Shown here: piece by piece, positions 5,959 through 32,028 of the stretch | Layout of the letters: each line of letters starts with the position of its first letter | Position numbering within the stretch: position 1 is the stretch's first letter | Position numbers and translations under genes: made by a program | DNA from: an uncultured Bacillota bacterium | GTDB taxonomy: Bacteria > Sysuimicrobiota > Sysuimicrobiia > Sysuimicrobiales > Segetimicrobiaceae | DNA: 64,000 nt | Direction: 5' to 3' | NCBI GenBank assembly: GCA_963804645.1 | Contig: CAWDRG010000009.1 | Coordinates: forward strand, 128,001 to 192,000 | Notes under the pieces: model-generated | What the model was told of the DNA's origin: nothing | The model's input: only the letters and a program-made list of their open reading frames with translations | The model's database searches: none

Positions 5959-6294
5959 TCAGACGACCCGGTTGACCAGCAGTCCGCCGGCGGGGCCCGA
6001 ATCACCGAGGTACTGGACCAGCCGCTCGCGCGCCGCCTTCAGCGCTCGCAGCAGGGCGAGATTCGTGCTGATGACGGCGAGGGTCTCTTGGATCACGCTG
6101 CGCGCCTTGGTGTCGGTGACGCCGGCGCTCCGCAGCGAGGTCACCAGCTCGGCGAGCTGCTGGGTCGTGGTCTCGACGCTCTCGCGCTCGAGCCGCACGA
6201 TCCCGGCCTGCTGCTGCTGGGCGAGCATCGCGATTCTGAGGATCATGCCTTCGAGGTCGGCGGGTGCGCTCTCGCGCTCGATGGTCGCGCTCAT
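5959..6294 (-). CDS. flgN: FlgN-like export chaperone
   Basis: 111 aa helical protein between flgM and flgK; N-x-x-LL and C-terminal LLVNRVV pattern; called mostly by position. Confidence 0.6.
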   Translation of the reverse strand: MSATIERESAPADLEGMILRIAMLAQQQQAGIVRLERESVETTTQQLAELVTSLRSAGVTDTKARSVIQETLAVISTNLALLRALKAARERLVQYLGDSGPAGGLLVNRVV

Positions 6295-6836: not shown

Positions 6837-7163
6837 TTATGGGGTGTGTGGACCCGAAAGTTTGTTCGGGTTCGAGCCCTGCCCGTGATGCGTGAGCGAG
6901 TCCAGCACCATCTTGGCGAGACCGTTGTCCCCCCGCGATACCGCGTCCGCGAACCCCTGCTCCACGAGCCCTCCATAAATGTCCGCGCCGCCGGACGAGT
7001 CTCCCATCAGCGTGTCCGTCGGAAGGGCGGTATGGAGCACTTCCTGCCACAGCATGGAGGCAAAGTCCTCACTCGCCTTCACGAGCTTCGCGTCCGGTGC
7101 TGCGGGGGCCGAGGCCGCTGCGGGGACGGCGGGCCCCAAGCCGGCCGGCTCGACGGCGGCCAT
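6837..7163 (-). CDS. flgJ: Rod-cap FlgJ, rod-binding domain only (no muramidase domain)
   Basis: KLVKASEDFASML...GGADIYGGLVEQGFADAVS...GLAKMV; follows flgI. Confidence 0.85.
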   Translation of the reverse strand: MAAVEPAGLGPAVPAAASAPAAPDAKLVKASEDFASMLWQEVLHTALPTDTLMGDSSGGADIYGGLVEQGFADAVSRGDNGLAKMVLDSLTHHGQGSNPNKLSGPHTP

Positions 7164-12179: not shown

Positions 12180-14332
12180 CAGGGCACCGAGATCATCCCG
12201 AAGGAATTGAGCGCGACGTCCGCCGCGAGCTCCTCGTACGCCATGATCGGCAGCCCGGGCACCCGCGCGGACACCAGCTTCCGCAGCGTGCTGCGGATCG
12301 ACCCCGGCACCAGGAGCACCGGGGAGACGCCCTTCGCCGCCGCGCTCGCGCGCGCGGCGACCAGCTGATCGCTCAGCACCGTGACCTCCTTCAGCCCGAG
12401 CCCCAGCAGCGGCTTGTGCTGGTCCTGCGCCTGCCGGAACCGGTCCTGCACCGCCGGGTCGAGCATCAGCACCGGCAGCTTCCGGTCCGCGCCCAGGTAC
12501 GACTGCCACAGCGCCGGCCCAAGCTGGCGCCGAGCCATCTCGACGAGATCGGCCGGGTCCTTCTGGTTGGCGTTGACCCCATCGGCCACCGCCTCGATGA
12601 TGCGGACGAGCGACCGCACCGGGATCTGCTCGGCCAGCAGGCCCTGGAGCACGCGCTGAAGCGTGCCGAGCGACACGATCTTCGGCACGACCTCGTCGAG
12701 CAGCACGGCGTGCTGACCGCGGAGCCGCTCCACCATGTCGCGGGTCGTCTGGCGCGTCATCAGATCCGGGGCGTGCCGGCGCAGCAGCTCGACCATGTGG
12801 GTGGCGATGACCACCGTCGGGGGCACCAGCAGGTACCCCGCCCGCTCGACGTCGTCCTTGATCGCCTGATCGACCCACACCGCGGGCCCGCCGAACGTGG
12901 GATCCTTCGCCTGCAGGCCCTCGATGGCCGGCGGGTTGGGGACCGTCGGAATGGCCATGATCCGGTTGGGGTAGACCTCGCCCCGGCCGACCTCGGCCCC
13001 CCACAGCGTCACCGCGTAGGTGCGCGCGCCGAGCGTCGCGACGTCCCGGATCCTGATCGTCGGGACCAGCACGGCGAGCTGCTGCGTCACCTGACGGCGC
13101 GCCAGCACCATGCGGTCCGCCAGGTCCCCCTGCGTCACGAGCGTCGCCAGCGACGGCGCCAGCAGCAGTTCGATCGGCTCGACCACGAGCAGCGATTCCA
13201 TCGCCTGCGGCGATCCGAGGTCCGCGGGCGCGGGGGCCGCGGCCGGCGCGGCTTTCGGCTGACGCCGCCGCGCGTTGCCCGCCACGATCAGCCCGACGGC
13301 GAACAGGAGAAAGACCACCTTCGGCATGCCCGGGATGAGGGCGATCACGCCGACCATGGCCCCGGCGAGCGATAGCGCCTGCGGCCGCGCGGTGATCTGC
13401 GCCACCGCCTCGGCGCCCAGCTCCTCGCGGGACGCCGCGCGCGTCACCAACAGTCCGCTCGCCATGCCCATCAGCAGCGCGGGGACCTGGACCGCGAGCC
13501 CGGCGCCCACCGTGAGCACCGTGAGGGCCTGCGCCGCGTCCTGAATCGGCTGGCCGCGCATGAACGCCGCGATCGCGATGCCGCCGACGAGATCGATCAG
13601 CACGATCACCGCGCTCGCGACCGCGTCGCCGCGCACGAACTTCCCCGCGCCGTCCATCGCGCCGTAGAAGTCCGCCTGCTGCTCGATCGCGCGGCGGCGG
13701 GTGCGCGCGACGTCCTCCGTGATCACCCCGGCGTTGAGATCGGCGTCGATCGCCATCTGCTTGCCGGGCATCGCGTCGAGCGTGAACCGGGCCGCGACCT
13801 CGGCGATCCGGCTCGCGCCGCTGCTGATCACGACGAACTGGACGATCATCACGATCAGGAACAGCACGAACCCGACGATGGCGTTGCCGCCCATCACGAC
13901 GTTCCCGAACGCGGCGATGAGGCTGCCGGCGCTGCCCTGGAGCAGGATGAGCCGCGTCAGCCCGATGTTGACGGCGAGGCGGAACACCGAGCTCATGAGC
14001 AGGACGGACGGGAACACCGAGAACTGCAGCGGGTCCGTCGTGTACGCGGCCACGAACATCACGAGCACCGACACCGCGATGTTCGCCGCCACCAGCAGGT
14101 CGATGATCCACGGGGCCAGCGGCGCCAGGATCAGCAGCGTGACCAGCAGGGCCGCGCCGCCGACGAGGACGTCGCCGAGCCGGCGCCCCGCCGTCTTGGC
14201 CGGAGTGGCGCCCGGCGCGGCGGCCGGACGCGCGGTACGGGCGGGGCGCACCTCTCGCGTCCGCGGCGCCTGCCGTCCCGGCGATCCGCCCACGCCGCTC
14301 ACGCCGGCCGACTCCGGCACGACGCTAGCCAC
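12179..14332 (-). CDS. flhA: Export apparatus protein FlhA
   Basis: RIAEVAARFTLDAMPGKQMAIDADL, ADFYGAMDGAGKFVRGDA; GTG start inferred. Confidence 0.97.
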   Translation of the reverse strand: MASVVPESAGVSGVGGSPGRQAPRTREVRPARTARPAAAPGATPAKTAGRRLGDVLVGGAALLVTLLILAPLAPWIIDLLVAANIAVSVLVMFVAAYTTDPLQFSVFPSVLLMSSVFRLAVNIGLTRLILLQGSAGSLIAAFGNVVMGGNAIVGFVLFLIVMIVQFVVISSGASRIAEVAARFTLDAMPGKQMAIDADLNAGVITEDVARTRRRAIEQQADFYGAMDGAGKFVRGDAVASAVIVLIDLVGGIAIAAFMRGQPIQDAAQALTVLTVGAGLAVQVPALLMGMASGLLVTRAASREELGAEAVAQITARPQALSLAGAMVGVIALIPGMPKVVFLLFAVGLIVAGNARRRQPKAAPAAAPAPADLGSPQAMESLLVVEPIELLLAPSLATLVTQGDLADRMVLARRQVTQQLAVLVPTIRIRDVATLGARTYAVTLWGAEVGRGEVYPNRIMAIPTVPNPPAIEGLQAKDPTFGGPAVWVDQAIKDDVERAGYLLVPPTVVIATHMVELLRRHAPDLMTRQTTRDMVERLRGQHAVLLDEVVPKIVSLGTLQRVLQGLLAEQIPVRSLVRIIEAVADGVNANQKDPADLVEMARRQLGPALWQSYLGADRKLPVLMLDPAVQDRFRQAQDQHKPLLGLGLKEVTVLSDQLVAARASAAAKGVSPVLLVPGSIRSTLRKLVSARVPGLPIMAYEELAADVALNSFGMISVP

Positions 14333-15386
14333 GGGCCGCCTCCGCCCGCGCCGTGCGATAGATCCAGCCCAGGACCTCGGCGACGGCGCGGTACAGCCGC
14401 GGCGGGATGAACTGTCCGACCTCGACGCTGGCATACAGCGCCCGGGCGAGCGGGGGTTCGGGGTGGATCGGCACGCCGGCGCGCCACGCCACCGCGCGGA
14501 TGCGCGCGGCGACGTGCCCCTGGCCCTTCGCGACGACCTGCGGCGCGGCGAGGCCCGCCTCGTAGCGCAGGGCGACCGCCACTTCGGTCGGGTTGGTGAT
14601 CACGACGGCCGCCGTCGGCACCGCGTGCATCATGCGCGCACGCGCGATCGCGCGCGCCCGGGCGCGGCGCCGGGACTTCCAGTACGGGTCGCCTTCGGTC
14701 TCTTTGAGATCCTCGCGGACCTCCTGGCGCGTCATCCGCAGCTCACGCTCGACCCGGAACCGCTGCCACGCGTAGTCCGCCGCCATGATGATCGCGCCGA
14801 CGGCGAACAGCCGCGCGAGGAGCGGCCCCGCGACCGCGCGCAGCACCTGCCAGACGCCGTCCGGCGACGCCAGCTCGCCGGCCGTGGCCCGGTTGAGGAT
14901 GTCCCGCAGGCCGGCCTTCAGCAGCAGCCCGACGACCACGCTGATCGCGGCCATCCGCAGCACCTCGACCGCGATCCGCGCGGACACGAGGCGCTTGAAC
15001 CCCGCGAGCGGATTCATCCGCGAGAGCTGCGGCTGCAGGACCGCGGGGGCGGCGCGCCCGCCGGTCTGAGCCAACCCCAGCGCGAGCGCCCCGGCGCACG
15101 CGCCGGCCGTCACCACGGCCACCGGGATCGCCGCGGTCCACAACGCGGTCCGCACCCACCCCATCGCCCACGGGATGCCGGGATCCGCGGGCACCGGAAG
15201 AGACGGCTGCGTGATCGCCCGCTCGAGCCAGCCCCATACCCAGCCACCTCCGAGCGCGAGCATGCCGAGCGCCCCGCCGACGGCTCCCACGGCCGTGGCC
15301 ATCCCGGTCCGTGCGATCTTGCCCTCCGTCTGCGCGCGCTGCCGCCGCCGCGGGGTGGGGGCCTCGGTGCGATCGCCGAGCGACAT
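14325..15386 (-). CDS. flhB: Export switch protein FlhB
   Basis: RTEAPTPRR, MTRQEVREDLKETEGDP, NPT autocleavage site (ITNPTE), PPLARALY. Confidence 0.96.
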   Translation of the reverse strand: MSLGDRTEAPTPRRRQRAQTEGKIARTGMATAVGAVGGALGMLALGGGWVWGWLERAITQPSLPVPADPGIPWAMGWVRTALWTAAIPVAVVTAGACAGALALGLAQTGGRAAPAVLQPQLSRMNPLAGFKRLVSARIAVEVLRMAAISVVVGLLLKAGLRDILNRATAGELASPDGVWQVLRAVAGPLLARLFAVGAIIMAADYAWQRFRVERELRMTRQEVREDLKETEGDPYWKSRRRARARAIARARMMHAVPTAAVVITNPTEVAVALRYEAGLAAPQVVAKGQGHVAARIRAVAWRAGVPIHPEPPLARALYASVEVGQFIPPRLYRAVAEVLGWIYRTARAEAARG

Positions 15387-22580: not shown

Positions 22581-23006
22581 CTACGGCACGCTGACGAGAT
22601 TCCCGAACGGGATTTTCTCGTTGTTGATCGTGAGCATCGGGCCGCTCGTGCCGACCGCCGCGCCCGTGACGCTGCCCTGCACGGTGTCGCCGCTCGTGGG
22701 ATCCTGATACGTCACCGACTGCCCCACCAGCTGGAGCGCGGTCTGGAACTGCGTCGTCTGGCTCGCCTGCGCGGTCTCCTCGACGTCGGTCATCTGGGCG
22801 AGCTGCGTGACCATCGTCGTCGGATCGGTGGCGTTCGTCGGATCCTGGTGGCTGAGCTCCTCCAACAGCACCTGCAGAAACATCTGGCTGACCGGCGTGG
22901 TCGCGCCGCTGCCGTTGAGGCTCGCGGCGCCGCTCGGGCCGCTGGTCGATCCGGCCGCCGGCGTCGTCGCGGGCGTGGTGACTTGGTTAAGCACCGGACT
23001 GCTCAT
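22581..23006 (-). CDS. flgD: Hook cap FlgD
   Basis: FLQVLLEELSHQDPTN...MVTQLAQ...LVGQSV; GAGGAGG RBS. Confidence 0.93.
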   Translation of the reverse strand: MSSPVLNQVTTPATTPAAGSTSGPSGAASLNGSGATTPVSQMFLQVLLEELSHQDPTNATDPTTMVTQLAQMTDVEETAQASQTTQFQTALQLVGQSVTYQDPTSGDTVQGSVTGAAVGTSGPMLTINNEKIPFGNLVSVP

Positions 23007-24567
23007 GTGTGTCCTCCTCTGAGTCTGGCATCGTCGTGTGGAAGCTCTGGGCCGATCGCGGAGGCCGGTGCGACCCGCCCTGCGGGTGCCCGTTTGACGA
23101 ACGGTCGGACGACGCGGGCCGCACGGCGAGATCCGACAACTGCACCTCGTGCGACGCGAGGGCGGAGCGCAGGGCCCCGGCATGGTCCCGAAGCGTCTGC
23201 GCCATCCCCGGCGTCTGCGTCACGACGCGCGCCGACACCGCGTCCGCCCGGTCGGTGAGGGTGACCGTGACCGGTTGGTCACCGCCGGACCGAATCGTCA
23301 CGTGGGAGACCGAGCCGCCGGTCGGTGCGCCGGCGGCCGGTCCATCCGTCACGCGCCCCTGCGCCCCGGCACCTGCGGCCGACGCGGCGCTCCCGGACGA
23401 TGCGGGCCCGGACGCCGCACCGCCCTGCGGGGCCTGGTTCATGCCCTGCCCGATCCCCTGATACCCGCCGCCGCCGGCCTGCGCCTGTCCGCCGTTCCCG
23501 GCGGTCACGCCGCCGAGATCCACCGCCAGCGCCGCATCGGCACCCCGCCGGCCCCCGTCCCGTCCAGAGCCCGCGGAGCCGGCGGCGCTGTCGATCCTCG
23601 CCTGCACCACCGCCGCCACCCCGTCGGCGTTGATCCCGTTCGACCCCGCGGCCTGACCGGCGACCGGCTTGACGGCCTGCCCGCCGCGGACGAATGCGCC
23701 ATCGGGATCCCCGCCGCGACCGGGGGCTATCCCGCGGGGCGGCGACACGTCGACGCGGTCAGATGCGGGCGCGCCGGCCTTCGCCCCGCCCGTGGAGGCG
23801 GGCGCAGCGGAACTGGCCCCGCTCGGTGCGGCGGGCGCCGGGGCCTTGGCCCCGCCCGTGGAGACGGGCGACGATCCCTGGCCCGCGCGGGTCCCGGCGC
23901 TCCCTCCCGTTCCCGAGGCGGCGCTGCCCGCGGCGCCGGCAGCGCCGCGGTGCGTCGGGTCGGTTCCGGTCGACCCGCCGGCCGTGCCGCTCGCAAGCTG
24001 GCGGGCAATGTCGTCACGCGCGCGCATGATGTTCGAGACGTACGATTGGGTCTCGGGATAGGGAGGCACGCCGCCCCACGACGAGACGGCGCCGCTGCCG
24101 GCGTTGTAGGCCGCGAGCCCGAGCGGGACGGAGCCGAACTCGGTGAGCTTCTGCCGCAGGTAGTCCAACCCGCCGGCGAGGTTCTGCGTAGGATCGAGCG
24201 GCTTTGAGACGCCGAGCTCTTGGACCGTACCCGGCATCAACTGCATCAGCCCCAGCGCCCCGGACGGCGACACGGCGCTGGGATTTCCGCCGGATTCCTG
24301 CAGGACGACCGCGAGCGCGAGCGCCGGGTCGACGCCCTCGCGGCGCGCCTGGCTGATGATCAGCTCGCGCTCGCTCTGCGGCAGCTTGCTGAGCTCGGCC
24401 GCGGCGCTCGACCCCGTGCCGCTGGCGCCTCCCGAGACCTGGTTCAGGACGCTCGCGAACGTGGACGTGCCCCCGCCCGAGTCCCCCGAGGCGTCCCCGG
24501 AGATCCCGAAGCGGGATTGGATCGTGCCGATGCGCGCGAGCACGGCGCTGAGGCTGGCCGGCATCAC
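22987..24567 (-). CDS. fliK: Lytic transglycosylase (SLT) fused to a FliK-like hook-length-control C-terminal domain
   Basis: SLT motifs QESGG, GLMQLMP, AAYNAG, ETQSYV; long G/A/S/P linker; VTVTL...VSARVVT...LRDHAGALRSAL...V at the C-terminus; occupies the fliK slot between fliJ and flgD. Confidence 0.8.
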   Translation of the reverse strand: MMPASLSAVLARIGTIQSRFGISGDASGDSGGGTSTFASVLNQVSGGASGTGSSAAAELSKLPQSERELIISQARREGVDPALALAVVLQESGGNPSAVSPSGALGLMQLMPGTVQELGVSKPLDPTQNLAGGLDYLRQKLTEFGSVPLGLAAYNAGSGAVSSWGGVPPYPETQSYVSNIMRARDDIARQLASGTAGGSTGTDPTHRGAAGAAGSAASGTGGSAGTRAGQGSSPVSTGGAKAPAPAAPSGASSAAPASTGGAKAGAPASDRVDVSPPRGIAPGRGGDPDGAFVRGGQAVKPVAGQAAGSNGINADGVAAVVQARIDSAAGSAGSGRDGGRRGADAALAVDLGGVTAGNGGQAQAGGGGYQGIGQGMNQAPQGGAASGPASSGSAASAAGAGAQGRVTDGPAAGAPTGGSVSHVTIRSGGDQPVTVTLTDRADAVSARVVTQTPGMAQTLRDHAGALRSALASHEVQLSDLAVRPASSDRSSNGHPQGGSHRPPRSAQSFHTTMPDSEEDTHEQSGA

Positions 24568-25010
24568 GCGATGGTCCTCCGCGCGCGCTCCGCCACCATC
24601 TCGTCCGTGGCCCGCTCCTGCTCCCGCGCGGCCTCGAGGCGGTGGGTGGCGAGCGCGCGGTCCTTGAGGCGCTCGACGATCTCCGTCTCCTGGCGGCGCG
24701 CCTCGACGACTCCCCGCGCCTCGGCGACGGTCGCCGCGGCCTGGGCCAGCAGGGTGGACTCGCTCTCCAGCGCCGCGTGCATGCCGCGCAGGATGGTGTC
24801 CGCGGTCAGCACCTCGGTCGCCGTCGGACTCTCGAGCAGGCGGTCGCGGACGTCGTCCACCGCGTCCTGGATCTCCGACTCGACCGCCGCCACCCGTTCC
24901 TCGGCCTCGCGCTGCCGCACGACCGACGCGTGCAGCTCGGCCTGGGCCGCGAGCATGCGATGGTGGCGCACTTCGAGCAACCGCTCCAGAGGAAACCGAA
25001 ACTTCTTCAT
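24564..25010 (-). CDS. fliJ: Export protein FliJ
   Basis: MKKFRFPLERLLEVR...ERLKDR...EQERATDE. Confidence 0.92.
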   Translation of the reverse strand: MKKFRFPLERLLEVRHHRMLAAQAELHASVVRQREAEERVAAVESEIQDAVDDVRDRLLESPTATEVLTADTILRGMHAALESESTLLAQAAATVAEARGVVEARRQETEIVERLKDRALATHRLEAAREQERATDEMVAERARRTIA

Positions 25011-26326
25011 CCCTGCAACACCGTCCTCAGCTGGTTCACGATGCCCTCGGCTTGCCCGACCTCGTTCTGATCCTGCCGCAGAAACGTCTCCAGCCCGGCC
25101 GCCACGTGGCGCGCCCGGTCGATCCGCGGATTCGAGCCGGGCGTGTAGGCGCCGATGTTGATCAGATCCTCCGCCTCGCGCAGCGCCGCAAGATGCCCGC
25201 GGACCTCCTGCGCCAATCCGAGATGGTCCGTGCCCACCACGGCCGGCATCACCCGGCTCAGGGACTGGACGATGTCGATCGGAGGAAACCAGCCGCGCTG
25301 GGACAGCGCCCGCGACAGCACGATGTGGCCGTCGAGAATGCTGCGCGTCGCGTCGGCGATCGGATCCATCATGTCGTCCCCGTCGACCAGCACCGTGTAC
25401 AGCGCCGTGATGCACCCGCGCGCGGCCGTCCCGGCCCGCTCCAGCATCCGCGGCAGCTGCGCGAACGCCGAGGGCGTGTACCCGCGGGTCGCCGGGGGCT
25501 CGCCGGCCGCCAGCCCGATCTCCCGCTGGGCCATCATCCACCGGGTCACGGAGTCCATCAGCAGCAGCACGTCCTGTCCCTGGTCCCGAAACCACTCGGC
25601 GATCGCGGTCGCGACGAGCGGCGCCGTCGCGCGTACCATCGGCGGCTCATCGCTCGTGGCCACGACCACCACGCCGCGCGCGAGCCCCTGCGCGGAGATG
25701 ATCTCGAGGAACTCGTTCACCTCGCGGCCGCGCTCGCCGATGAGCGCCGTGACCACCACGTCCGCCTGGGCCGACCGCGCGAGCATCCCGAGGAGCGTGC
25801 TCTTGCCCACGCCGCTCCCGCTCATGATGCCGATGCGCTGGCCCCGCCCCAGCGTGAGGCAGCCGTCGATCGCGCGCACACCGGTCCACAGCGGCGTCGT
25901 GATCCGGGGACGGTCGAGCGGGTTCGGGGGCGATCGCCGGATCGGGGCCCAGTCGCGCCCGACCACCGGCGGCTTCCCGTCCAGCGGGTGTCCGAGCCCG
26001 TTCACCACGCGGCCGAGCACGTCGTCGCCCACCCGGATCGCCAGCGCCCGTCCGAACGGTACGACCTCGGCGCCGGCGCCCATGCCGCTGAGATGGCCGA
26101 GCGCCATCAGTAGGACGCGGCCCTGGCGGAACCCGACGACCTCCGCCTCGATCGCGGGCTCGGTCGGAGACGACTGCACGAGGCACAGATCGCCGACGGC
26201 GACGCCCTCGGGCCCGCGCGCCTCAAGGATCAGCCCCACGATGTCCGTGACCGTGCCGATGACCCGCACGAGCGACGCGTCGGAGACGCGCTGCGGAATC
26301 TCCGCGAGCAGCGGATCAAGATGCAT
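25007..26326 (-). CDS. fliI: Flagellar export ATPase FliI
   Basis: GSGVGKST Walker A, LIGERGREV, DSVTR, GEPPATRGY, LDGHIVLSR. Confidence 0.97.
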   Translation of the reverse strand: MHLDPLLAEIPQRVSDASLVRVIGTVTDIVGLILEARGPEGVAVGDLCLVQSSPTEPAIEAEVVGFRQGRVLLMALGHLSGMGAGAEVVPFGRALAIRVGDDVLGRVVNGLGHPLDGKPPVVGRDWAPIRRSPPNPLDRPRITTPLWTGVRAIDGCLTLGRGQRIGIMSGSGVGKSTLLGMLARSAQADVVVTALIGERGREVNEFLEIISAQGLARGVVVVATSDEPPMVRATAPLVATAIAEWFRDQGQDVLLLMDSVTRWMMAQREIGLAAGEPPATRGYTPSAFAQLPRMLERAGTAARGCITALYTVLVDGDDMMDPIADATRSILDGHIVLSRALSQRGWFPPIDIVQSLSRVMPAVVGTDHLGLAQEVRGHLAALREAEDLINIGAYTPGSNPRIDRARHVAAGLETFLRQDQNEVGQAEGIVNQLRTVLQG

Positions 26327-30813: not shown

Positions 30814-32028
30814 TTAGTCCGCGGCGGGACCCTCGACGCGTGCGGTGCGCTGCGCGGACGCCAGTGCCGGCGCGCTTCCAATGTGCTGCACGTCCGGGAC
30901 GTCCGGCACAGCCTGCAGCGGGGCCGCGGGTGCGGTGCCGTTGCGGGTGGGCGGGGTGGAACCGGGCAGCATCGCGACGAGCGCGAACACCGCGCGCGCC
31001 TGCTCGAGGACGCTGCTGGCGTCGGTGATTTGTCCGGAGGACGTGTGCAGGTCCGCGAGGACCACGAGGCTCTGGGCCTCGGTCAGCGCGTCGCCGGCCT
31101 CGTGCGCCACCGCGCGGGCGTATCCGATCTGGGCGAACGCTTCGTCGATCCGCCCCTGCCGGCGCGCCGCCTGCCCCAGGTGCAGGCGCGTGACCGCCTC
31201 CTGCCGCTTGGTCGCCAAGGCCTCGCGCAGCATCAGCGCGTGCTGATTGGCATTGACCGCGCCTGCCAGGTTCCCGTGGCTCTCGGCGGTGATCGCCTGC
31301 GCTTCCCACAGTTCCGCCGCCTGCTGGGGCGCGAGCGAGGCCATCGCCTCCTCGAGCTGCGCCTCGAGGCCGTCGCTGCCGTCGCCCTGCGCCAGCGCGA
31401 CGCAGATCAGCTCGGCCACGCAGCGCGCGCGCAGGCCCGGCCAGGAGTCACCCATGCTGGCCAGCGTCGTGATCAGCGTCTGCTGGGCCCGGGGATGATC
31501 GCCCTTCGCGTGCAGCGCCACGGCCAGCGCGTAGCGACTCTGGGCCACCGCCTGCGCGTGCCCGAACCGCGCCGCCTCCGTCTGCGCCGCGGTCAGCTCG
31601 GTCTCATACTGCGGGGTCCACCGGCGCTGCACGCGCGCCGACGCGAACTCAAGACGGGCGAGCGCGGTGCGGGACGCATCCGAGGCGGTCACCGCGAGGG
31701 CCTCGGCGGTCTCAAACAGGCGCTGCGCGGTCTCCAGGTCGCCCGCGGCGCGCCGGATCCTCGCGCGCAGCAGCACGCAGTCGATCTCGGCCTCGTCCGG
31801 GCCGCCCTGCTCCAGGAAAAATCGGATGGGCTTCCCGACGCGGCGCGCGATGTGCGACAGCACCCGACGGGTGGGGTTCACGCGGCCGGACTCGATCCGG
31901 TGGATGGTGACCGGATCGACCTCGCCGCCCGCGAGCTGTGCTTGCGTCAGCCCAGCCTCCAAACGCGACTGTCGAACCTTGTCCGCGAGCGAGGCTGTTG
32001 AGGAACTCAACCGGATCGTCCCCCCCAC
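30814..32028 (-). CDS. XRE-family HTH plus TPR-repeat transcriptional regulator
   Basis: KVRQSRLEAGLTQAQLA...IHRIESGRVNP HTH followed by Ala/Leu-rich helical repeats; GTG start. Confidence 0.85.
   Translation of the reverse strand: MGGTIRLSSSTASLADKVRQSRLEAGLTQAQLAGGEVDPVTIHRIESGRVNPTRRVLSHIARRVGKPIRFFLEQGGPDEAEIDCVLLRARIRRAAGDLETAQRLFETAEALAVTASDASRTALARLEFASARVQRRWTPQYETELTAAQTEAARFGHAQAVAQSRYALAVALHAKGDHPRAQQTLITTLASMGDSWPGLRARCVAELICVALAQGDGSDGLEAQLEEAMASLAPQQAAELWEAQAITAESHGNLAGAVNANQHALMLREALATKRQEAVTRLHLGQAARRQGRIDEAFAQIGYARAVAHEAGDALTEAQSLVVLADLHTSSGQITDASSVLEQARAVFALVAMLPGSTPPTRNGTAPAAPLQAVPDVPDVQHIGSAPALASAQRTARVEGPAAD

Follow-up and report, generated by a model that had tools for sequence, protein, structure and literature searches.

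The flagellar locus and the fusion gene

The window, a stretch of 64,000 nucleotides (nt) from contig CAWDRG010000009.1 of an uncultured bacterium, carries on its minus strand a flagellar regulon in which one open reading frame (ORF) joins an SLT lytic transglycosylase domain to a domain of the type found in the flagellar ruler protein FliK. The fusion is a genuine evolutionary joining of two neighbouring flagellar genes, and its architecture, conservation, adjacent-gene origin, recurrence and intact catalytic motif are established by the observations set out below. The individual parts are already known, and the joining to FliK is what is new. A search of the open-access and preprint literature, with subscription journals and database architecture pages outside its reach, found no description of an SLT-FliK fusion. 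Fused proteins are currently labelled just 'SLT domain-containing protein' or 'FliK'; because such annotation names one half only, FliK looks absent in these genomes or the enzyme is overlooked.

The fusion gene follows flgC, fliE, fliF, fliG, fliH, fliI and fliJ, and is succeeded by flgD, flgE, flbD, motA, fliL, fliM, fliO, fliP, fliQ, fliR, flhB and flhA. Past flhA lie flgF, flgG, flgA, flgH, flgI, an ORF of 108 amino acids (aa), flgM, flgK, flgL, the flagellin gene and fliD. The presence of FlgH and FlgI indicates that the organism has an outer membrane. Coordinates of the features discussed are collected in Table 1.

Table 1. Coordinates of the fusion ORF, its segments and selected flagellar genes in the window.
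Feature	Coordinates	Strand	Details
SLT-FliK fusion ORF	22987..24567	-	526 aa including the GTG start; stop codon 22987-22989; from the ORF list and Pfam
N-terminal export-signal-like region	24433..24567	-	Residues 1-45; non-polar at 3-11; predicted helix 3-18
F-A-S-V-L, resembling a gate-recognition motif (GRM)	24445..24459	-	ORF residues 37-41 = 36-40 counted from ATG
SLT (family GH23) lytic transglycosylase domain	24070..24363	-	Residues 69-166; catalytic Glu91 at 24295-24297
Gly/Ala/Ser/Pro-rich disordered linker, presumed ruler segment	23311..23982	-	Residues 196-419
FliK-type C-terminal (T3S4, substrate-switch) domain	23101..23307	-	Residues ~421-489
Acidic disordered C-terminal tail	22990..23100	-	Residues 490-526; predicted local distance difference test (pLDDT) <50; alignment A2
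fliJ, directly upstream	24564..25013	-	Pfam FliJ; start inferred from a 149-aa homologue in G004
flgD (hook cap), directly downstream	22581..23006	-	Pfam FlgD; start inferred from a 141-aa homologue in G004
flhB, export-gate switch protein, presumed target of the FliK-type domain	14325..15386	-	Pfam Bac_export_2; NPTE at 265-268
FlgJ-like 108-aa ORF, directly after flgI	6837..7163	-	Weak Rod-binding match; no hydrolase domain

The ORF starts with GTG, followed by ATG as codon 2, and GGAGGA is located 8-11 nt upstream. The GTG overlaps the stop codon of fliJ, and at the other end flgD overlaps the 3' end of the fusion gene by ~20 nt. Residues of the N-terminal motif are often counted from the ATG, i.e. 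as the ORF residue minus 1. Pfam and an AlphaFold2 model of the full-length protein, built on an alignment of 14 fused homologues (A1), gave the domain order N-terminal region, SLT, disordered linker, FliK-type domain and acidic tail. An earlier interpretation of the same DNA from its letters and ORFs (the sequence-only reading) had described a single 526-aa ORF with an intact SLT domain, a Gly/Ala/Pro/Ser linker of about 230 aa and a FliK-like C-terminal domain, and all three elements were recovered. SLT (PF01464) matches residues 69-166 with E 8.9e-27 and 93.4 bits against a cut-off of 21.3, and the E91-S92 (LQES), GLMQLMP and AAYNAG motifs are present and invariant across the 14 fused homologues. 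The linker comprises residues 196-420 (225 aa) and is disordered in the AlphaFold2 model. Flg_hook (PF02120) matches residues 432-488 with E 2.6e-7, marginally, at 30.8 bits against a cut-off of 29.8.

Integrity of the fusion

Among the checks proposed by the sequence-only reading were one for an indel or lost stop across the linker and one for the same architecture in related genomes, and both came out in favour of a real fusion. Logan short-read contigs from four peat-metagenome runs were compared with positions 22900-24700, and none had inserted or deleted letters there. Exact pieces from run X1 cover 22900-23484, 23588-23963, 23934-24429 and 24400-24583, and the gap in X1 is closed by an exact piece from run X3 (23302-23617). 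Pieces of co-occurring strain variants each carry 2-22 substitutions and 0 gaps. As X1 may be the source sample of the window, this tiling checks the assembly and is not of independent origin. In run X2, single contigs skip 208 and 114 bases (23398-23607 and 24118-24233), with shorter sides of 24 and 21 letters, and may represent length variants or mis-joins; the shorter sides are too weak for these joints to be accepted as length variants. RNA runs contain just small shares of the stretch.

Further support, independent of these contigs, came from a search of 5.8 billion clusters, where 13 of the 120 best homologues listed, that of the window included, carry both Pfam domains. These 13 proteins, all of them in frame, share 43-100% identity in the best local segment and 23-91% over the whole protein (alignment A1). 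The fusion is in frame in G006, a genome of the same genus, and in further homologues, and in-frame fusions with differing linker lengths come from JGI, ENA, NCBI and Logan assemblies. Two close homologues, P0006 and P0009 (the latter from G004), are frameshifted in the linker in their assemblies. At the G004 locus, of the same genus (L007; contig C18, 725-2325, minus strand), a 384-aa ORF consists of the SLT domain and an Arg-rich out-of-frame tail, and a second, ATG-started ORF of 249 aa carries the FliK-type domain. An assembly error, a pseudogene or a real fission could account for the G004 split.

The SLT domain and its family

The AlphaFold2 model has a pLDDT of 80-92 over most of residues ~60-195, with a dip to 45-61 near residues 97-120. 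Foldseek with the full-length model retrieved Slt, Slt70, MltD, MltF and MltE at E 1e-6 to 1e-4 and probability 1.00. As modelled, the SLT half is thus an SLT/GH23 lytic transglycosylase with a goose-lysozyme-like helical fold, and its sequence suggests that it would be enzymatically active.

Between residues 1-196 and a CwlQ-like ORF of Bacillus mexicanus (245 aa, catalytic Glu at position 149), identity is 45% over 167 aa (E 2e-41). This length and position fit CwlQ of B. subtilis, which has 244 aa and catalytic E148 according to passages of a preprint (bioRxiv 10.1101/2021.01.13.426625). The same passages report that CwlQ has no Sec or Tat signal, that its secretion is FliF-dependent and requires residues 2-35, and that it is needed for swarming and not for flagellar assembly. 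The two proteins are alike in that a non-enzymatic N-terminal region precedes the SLT domain and its catalytic Glu; by inspection, no Sec/Tat signal is apparent in the fusion. They differ in that CwlQ is stand-alone and SigD-dependent, whereas the enzyme of the fusion is joined covalently to a FliK linker and switch domain. The CwlQ gene lies outside the main flagellar operon; the enzyme of the fusion sits between fliJ and flgD, in a diderm with P and L rings.

When a profile of 14 fusions was run against 1.84 billion representatives, the best 150 included dozens of 170-230-aa proteins whose match begins at residue ~2-5 and includes the SLT domain. In excerpts of a 2026 preprint (PMC13277936), 'Transglycosylase' is named among broadly distributed flagellar genes, and the word 'fusion' is absent from these excerpts. 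SltF of Rhodobacter and BB0259 of Borrelia, as described in parts of PMC8517470, are likewise flagellum-dedicated SLT-type enzymes where FlgJ has no hydrolase. They differ in having Sec signal peptides and binding FlgJ (PMC8517470, same parts), whereas no Sec signal is apparent in the fusion. The NCBIfam model for BB0259 matched just the SLT part of the fusion, at 55.5 bits against a cut-off of 234, which does not place the protein in that family. Two loci in metagenome-assembled genomes (MAGs) labelled Eremiobacteraeota and Vulcanimicrobiota (L033 and L036) carry a different, non-flagellar SLT paralogue beside transporter-like genes and hence reveal little about the taxon of the window, for which Eremiobacterota would be a tentative guess at the phylum level.

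The FliK-type domain and FlhB

In the full-length model, the C-terminal domain (residues 420-487) has three strands, two helices and a strand with a pLDDT of ~80. As Foldseek with the full-length model gave SLT enzymes only, a separate model of the C-terminal domain was built from an alignment of 10 relatives, with a mean pLDDT of 57 (moderate confidence). The best match of this lone domain in the PDB by Foldseek was the C-domain of FliK (2rrl; E 0.099, probability 0.94), and the switch domain of PscP (5cuk) was fourth with a TM-score of 0.54. With VIA-align, PscP (Z 5.8) and FliK (Z 4.9) took ranks 2 and 3, and unrelated folds score in the same range. A sequence search of the PDB with the C-terminal 137 aa gave a best E of 0.13, to unrelated proteins.

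By BLASTP, the C-terminal domain is 34% identical over 61 aa (E 4e-6) to the separate FliK of G036, a genome of the same order. Only these C-terminal 61 aa align to G036 FliK, and an N-terminal region of the FliK type was not detected in the fusion. Across the fusion clade, the C-terminal domain is the best-conserved part after SLT, and fused relatives reach 58.9 bits for Flg_hook. The FliK-type domain is assigned from the Pfam match, homology to sister FliKs, its place in the operon and the failure to find another candidate. Like FliK of Salmonella (PDB 2rrl), the fusion is encoded before flgD and flgE by the sole such gene found in the genome and has a long disordered segment followed by a small alpha/beta C-terminal domain matching Flg_hook. 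It differs in that its N-terminal third is an enzyme with the N-terminus of the SLT family rather than the FliK N-domain, and in its acidic C-terminal tail, without the hydrophobic ending that FliK has in neighbouring lineages. Separate FliKs of sister families (L021-L024 and L018) end in ..VDYVV or ..IDLIV, and proteins of the fused clade end in an acidic tail, ..MPDSEEDTHEQSGA (..DSEEDTHEQSGA).

A six-frame Flg_hook scan of the genome itself (22 contigs, 96.8% complete) gave five matches at E <= 1, with only the fusion above the cut-off. Two of the four sub-cut-off matches, both weak and on contig C4, were checked and rejected as FliK, as one is part of a histidine kinase and the other belongs to an ORF without a Pfam family. 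A true fliK elsewhere, which the sequence-only reading had raised as the contrary case, was thus not found by the Flg_hook scan of this 96.8%-complete genome. FlhB (P0278) has a conserved N-P site, N265 and P266 being invariant in alignment A3. The sequence data suggest that the FliK half would function as ruler and switch.

The linker

Residues 196-420 include 58 Gly, 55 Ala, 23 Ser and 16 Pro, and the pLDDT is <50 across residues 195-419. The linker DNA is of low complexity with a G+C content of 78-80%. Both length and sequence of the linker vary among fused homologues, and BLASTP detected no similarity to the separate FliK of G036. In homologue P0008, a ~30-aa stretch of the linker (..DGSVAAPQARSADAV..) is present twice, and this duplication suggests that the presumed ruler segment changes length by tandem duplication among close relatives. 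An internal start was considered and rejected, since within the linker just one in-frame ATG, at residue 376, has a Shine-Dalgarno-like sequence, and it is kept in the closest relatives only.

The switch domain starts at residue 372-451 in the fusions of the window's clade and at ~395-487 in separate FliKs of sister genomes, the latter being rough estimates from regex match positions. As these ranges overlap, the protein did not grow by the size of the SLT module (~190 aa) when the genes fused. The roughly kept length is compatible with selection on ruler length and is not a test of such selection.

The N-terminal region

The helix at residues 3-18 was predicted by AlphaFold2 at low confidence. 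All 14 fused homologues have R11 and F36 (numbering from the ATG), and I12 and L40 are nearly invariant. In the SLT family as sampled here (120 members, 80 short and 40 fused), 90 members have an F-x-x-x-hydrophobic motif in the segment from residue 15 to the SLT domain, where shuffled versions of these segments would give 32.0; the motif lies at a median position of 36.5, and 108 of the 120 have at least four small or non-polar residues among residues 2-12. The N-terminal motif of the fusion is found also in stand-alone SLTs of sister genomes and in proteins of ~170-230 aa from many lineages.

According to sections of PMC8983047, rod and hook subunits of Salmonella carry a hydrophobic N-terminal signal and a GRM (36-FLTLL-40 in FlgD), the spacing between the two export signals of early subunits is critical, and FliK, too, requires a non-polar N-terminus. 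To judge from its sequence, the N-terminus of the fusion resembles this early-subunit layout. By inspection only, no Sec signal is apparent in the fusion, which is as far as the sequence-only reading can be followed in its claim that there is none; a basic n-region and a twin-Arg are absent, an invariant Arg lies within the N-terminal helix, and the maximal 11-residue hydropathy is 1.64. Complex prediction for the N-terminal 60 residues (A1) with the C-terminal domain of FlhB (A3, 212-353) scored 0.20 and 0.24 against a mark of 0.32 and speaks neither for nor against an interaction. On the strength of its N-terminus, the fusion protein is presumably exported by the flagellar type III route.

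Origin from adjacent genes

Of 94 genomes of the order, 8 gave a Flg_hook match at E <= 0.001, and 4 exceeded the cut-off; by family, G000 left out, matches came from 2/22 genomes of f1, 4/12 of f4 and 1/1 of f7. Tallies for the order include one row for an unpublished genome (G034), which gave no match. In the window's genus, FliK was detected in 3 of 7 genomes. These proportions indicate that motility genes were often gained or lost in the lineage. Within the order, the full-length fusion was found only in the window's genus, namely in G000 and G006 (in frame) and in G004 (frameshifted).

Four genomes of sister families f4 and f7 (G028, G030, G033 and G036) have fliI, fliJ, a stand-alone SLT gene for 164-189 aa and a separate fliK. 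In these, fliK starts at or overlaps the SLT stop, and the FliK C-terminal domain aligns with that of the fusion. The stand-alone SLTs share the opening motif of the fusion, M-I-P-x-x-L-x-x-L-x-R-I-x-x-I-E/Q. As the opening motif is shared with SLTs and only the last 61 aa match G036 FliK, the fusion combines the N-terminus of SLT with the C-terminus of FliK.

The order fliJ, SLT, fliK and flgD as separate genes occurs also in Nocardioides sp. Root122, Geodermatophilus poikilotrophus, Couchioplanes caeruleus, Anaerolinea and Bellilinea MAGs, a Synergistaceae MAG and one metagenome chromosome. At the Nocardioides (L035, 3383-4363) and Couchioplanes (L078, 3425-4396) loci, the gene between fliJ and fliK encodes ~325 aa with the same N-terminal motif and an extra segment before SLT; the matching Nocardioides cluster P0053 is NlpC/P60 plus SLT.

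Recurrence of the fusion

Other genomes, from several lineages, carry the SLT-FliK fusion as well. Among the best 150 representatives of the profile search, 58 were long proteins (260-1000 aa), and Pfam found SLT together with Flg_hook in 28 of them at E <= 0.01 (21 above the cut-off). A local hidden Markov model detected the FliK-type domain in 42 proteins, the query set included. The fused proteins form groups that differ visibly in N-terminus, tail and length (484-820 aa). Source labels are available for few: an Acidimicrobiales MAG (P0126), Armatimonadota MAGs (P0163), a MAG labelled Deltaproteobacteria (cluster P0229) and 'bacterium' for the window's clade.

An SLT-domain tree built with FastTree comprised 133 rows, 24 of 157 candidates having been dropped for not having exactly one AAYNAG-type motif at 90-270. 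The fused state changes 11 times on this tree, and at least 5 changes are forced by well-supported branches; the count is rough because the tree has few columns and many unresolved forks. On this tree, a single origin of the fusion is nonetheless unlikely.

The same flagellar SLT family is fused also to NlpC/P60 and M23 peptidases. NlpC/P60-SLT proteins of Actinomycetota and M23-SLT proteins of Chloroflexota resemble the SLT-FliK fusion in the N-terminal motif, the SLT family and the place between fliJ and fliK. They differ in that their partner is a second enzyme, whereas that of the fusion is the regulatory ruler FliK.

FlgJ

The sequence-only reading had taken FlgJ at this locus to be without a hydrolase domain. 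The 108-aa ORF after flgI indeed has no such domain, but its identity as FlgJ, though plausible, is weakly supported, the Rod-binding match (E 0.0045, 17.9 bits against a cut-off of 25.1) being sub-threshold. A whole-genome scan with the Rod-binding (FlgJ) family gave nothing at E <= 1. The fusion protein itself contains no Rod-binding or glucosaminidase domain at E <= 0.1 (Pfam), and hence is not a dual-domain FlgJ. Dual-domain FlgJ of beta- and gamma-proteobacteria is similar in joining a wall-cutting domain to a flagellar protein exported by the type III route during rod assembly. In FlgJ, however, the enzyme is a C-terminal GH73 glucosaminidase and the partner is the rod cap, whereas in the fusion an N-terminal SLT enzyme is joined to the ruler without a Rod-binding domain.

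Proposed function and alternative explanations

From the data above we infer the export route, the enzyme activity, the ruler function and any advantage that coupling may bring. The product is probably a single early type III substrate: it would bring a transglycosylase to the periplasm during rod building, and its tail would serve as ruler and switch. The SLT-derived N-terminus, with its non-polar residues and F-x-x-x-L at 36-40, would dock the fusion at the export gate, from where the protein would be threaded out unfolded. While the rod is still in the periplasm, the SLT domain would fold there and cut peptidoglycan around the growing rod. The linker and C-terminal domain would then act like FliK, measuring length and flipping FlhB to late substrates.

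The sequence-only reading had suggested that the secreted ruler delivers the enzyme. A type III substrate carrying a wall-opening enzyme is the best-supported interpretation, but the direction is probably the reverse, the N-terminus being that of a stand-alone SLT. As the SLT family has its own export-signal-like N-terminus and CwlQ is secreted on its own, the signal of the enzyme probably now carries the remainder of FliK, the own N-terminal part of which is no longer detectable in the fusion (BLASTP against G036 FliK).

Several points weigh against an early substrate that combines enzyme and ruler in this way. The fusion exceeds the Flg_hook cut-off by little (30.8 against 29.8), FliK and PscP are matched weakly in structure (Foldseek E 0.099; Z 4.9-5.8), and the fusion clade lacks the hydrophobic ..VDYVV-type ending of sister FliKs. 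In Salmonella, the extreme C-terminus of FliK is important for the switch. That a Sec signal is absent was judged solely by inspection, and the two frameshifted homologues indicate that split forms may exist or be tolerated. In Salmonella, hydrolase activity of FlgJ merely improves efficiency, as stated in part of PMC13584718; with CwlQ of B. subtilis dispensable for assembly, a role in rod penetration is not assured.

The fusion might instead be functionally neutral, a stop codon having been lost between overlapping co-expressed early substrates, with the halves acting independently and the linker possibly cut after export. A small change could fuse the genes, given that in sister genomes fliK starts next to the SLT stop or overlaps it; moreover, fusion or fission is repeated on the SLT tree, the flagellar SLT is joined also to NlpC/P60 and M23, and frameshifted or split versions are present in two assemblies. 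Yet the fused state has been kept to ~35% overall identity in the clade with both domains conserved, and, with the N-terminal region of FliK undetectable, the FliK half would depend on the SLT N-terminus for export. Neutrality is therefore considered unlikely.

A stronger form of coupling, which we regard as distinctly improbable, is that the SLT domain took over the 'sensor' role of the FliK N-terminus, folding outside the channel and gripping peptidoglycan or the rod/hook tip so as to anchor the ruler. If so, wall penetration and length measurement with the switch would be one mechanical event rather than two co-exported activities, and the repeated independent fusions would mark a selectable advantage of coupling.

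That the protein is essentially a flagellar lytic transglycosylase with a degenerate FliK-derived tail, hook length and the switch being controlled otherwise, is very unlikely. The marginal Flg_hook score, the weak structural matches and the loss of the usual hydrophobic C-terminal ending would fit such a tail, but the C-terminal domain is the best conserved after SLT and is confidently folded in the full-length model, no other FliK candidate was found in the genome, and FlhB retains the conserved N-P cleavage site. An assembly or sequencing error, by which an indel in the G+C-rich linker artificially joined two genes, is extremely improbable, for although the low-complexity linker is error-prone and two homologues are frameshifted in it, the short-read contigs have 0 gaps, exact X1 and X3 pieces tile the ORF, the variants are substitution-only, and in-frame fusions with differing linker lengths come from four assembly sources.

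Delivery of the transglycosylase by an early type III substrate, the interpretation preferred here, bears on the open question of how flagella cross the wall where FlgJ has no hydrolase or is absent, and on the unclear role of CwlQ. The recurrent in-frame fusion to FliK is a 'Rosetta-stone' hint which suggests that the enzyme shares its route and stage with the earliest export substrates. It further suggests that the N-terminal third of FliK can be replaced by a folded enzyme with the overall length roughly kept. Constructs for secretion assays, for chimeras in model organisms and for testing the ruler model could be taken directly from the fusion.

Other genes

An ORF of 111 aa without a Pfam family lies between flgM and flgK (5959-6294, minus strand), the usual place of the FlgK/FlgL chaperone FlgN. 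Directly upstream of the flagellar operon, a protein with helix-turn-helix and tetratricopeptide repeat segments is encoded (30814-32028, minus strand) and may regulate the operon. Elsewhere, locus L003 (G000, contig C4, 802-1635, plus strand) encodes a 277-aa sigma factor with regions 2, 3 and 4, which could be the flagellar sigma factor FliA.

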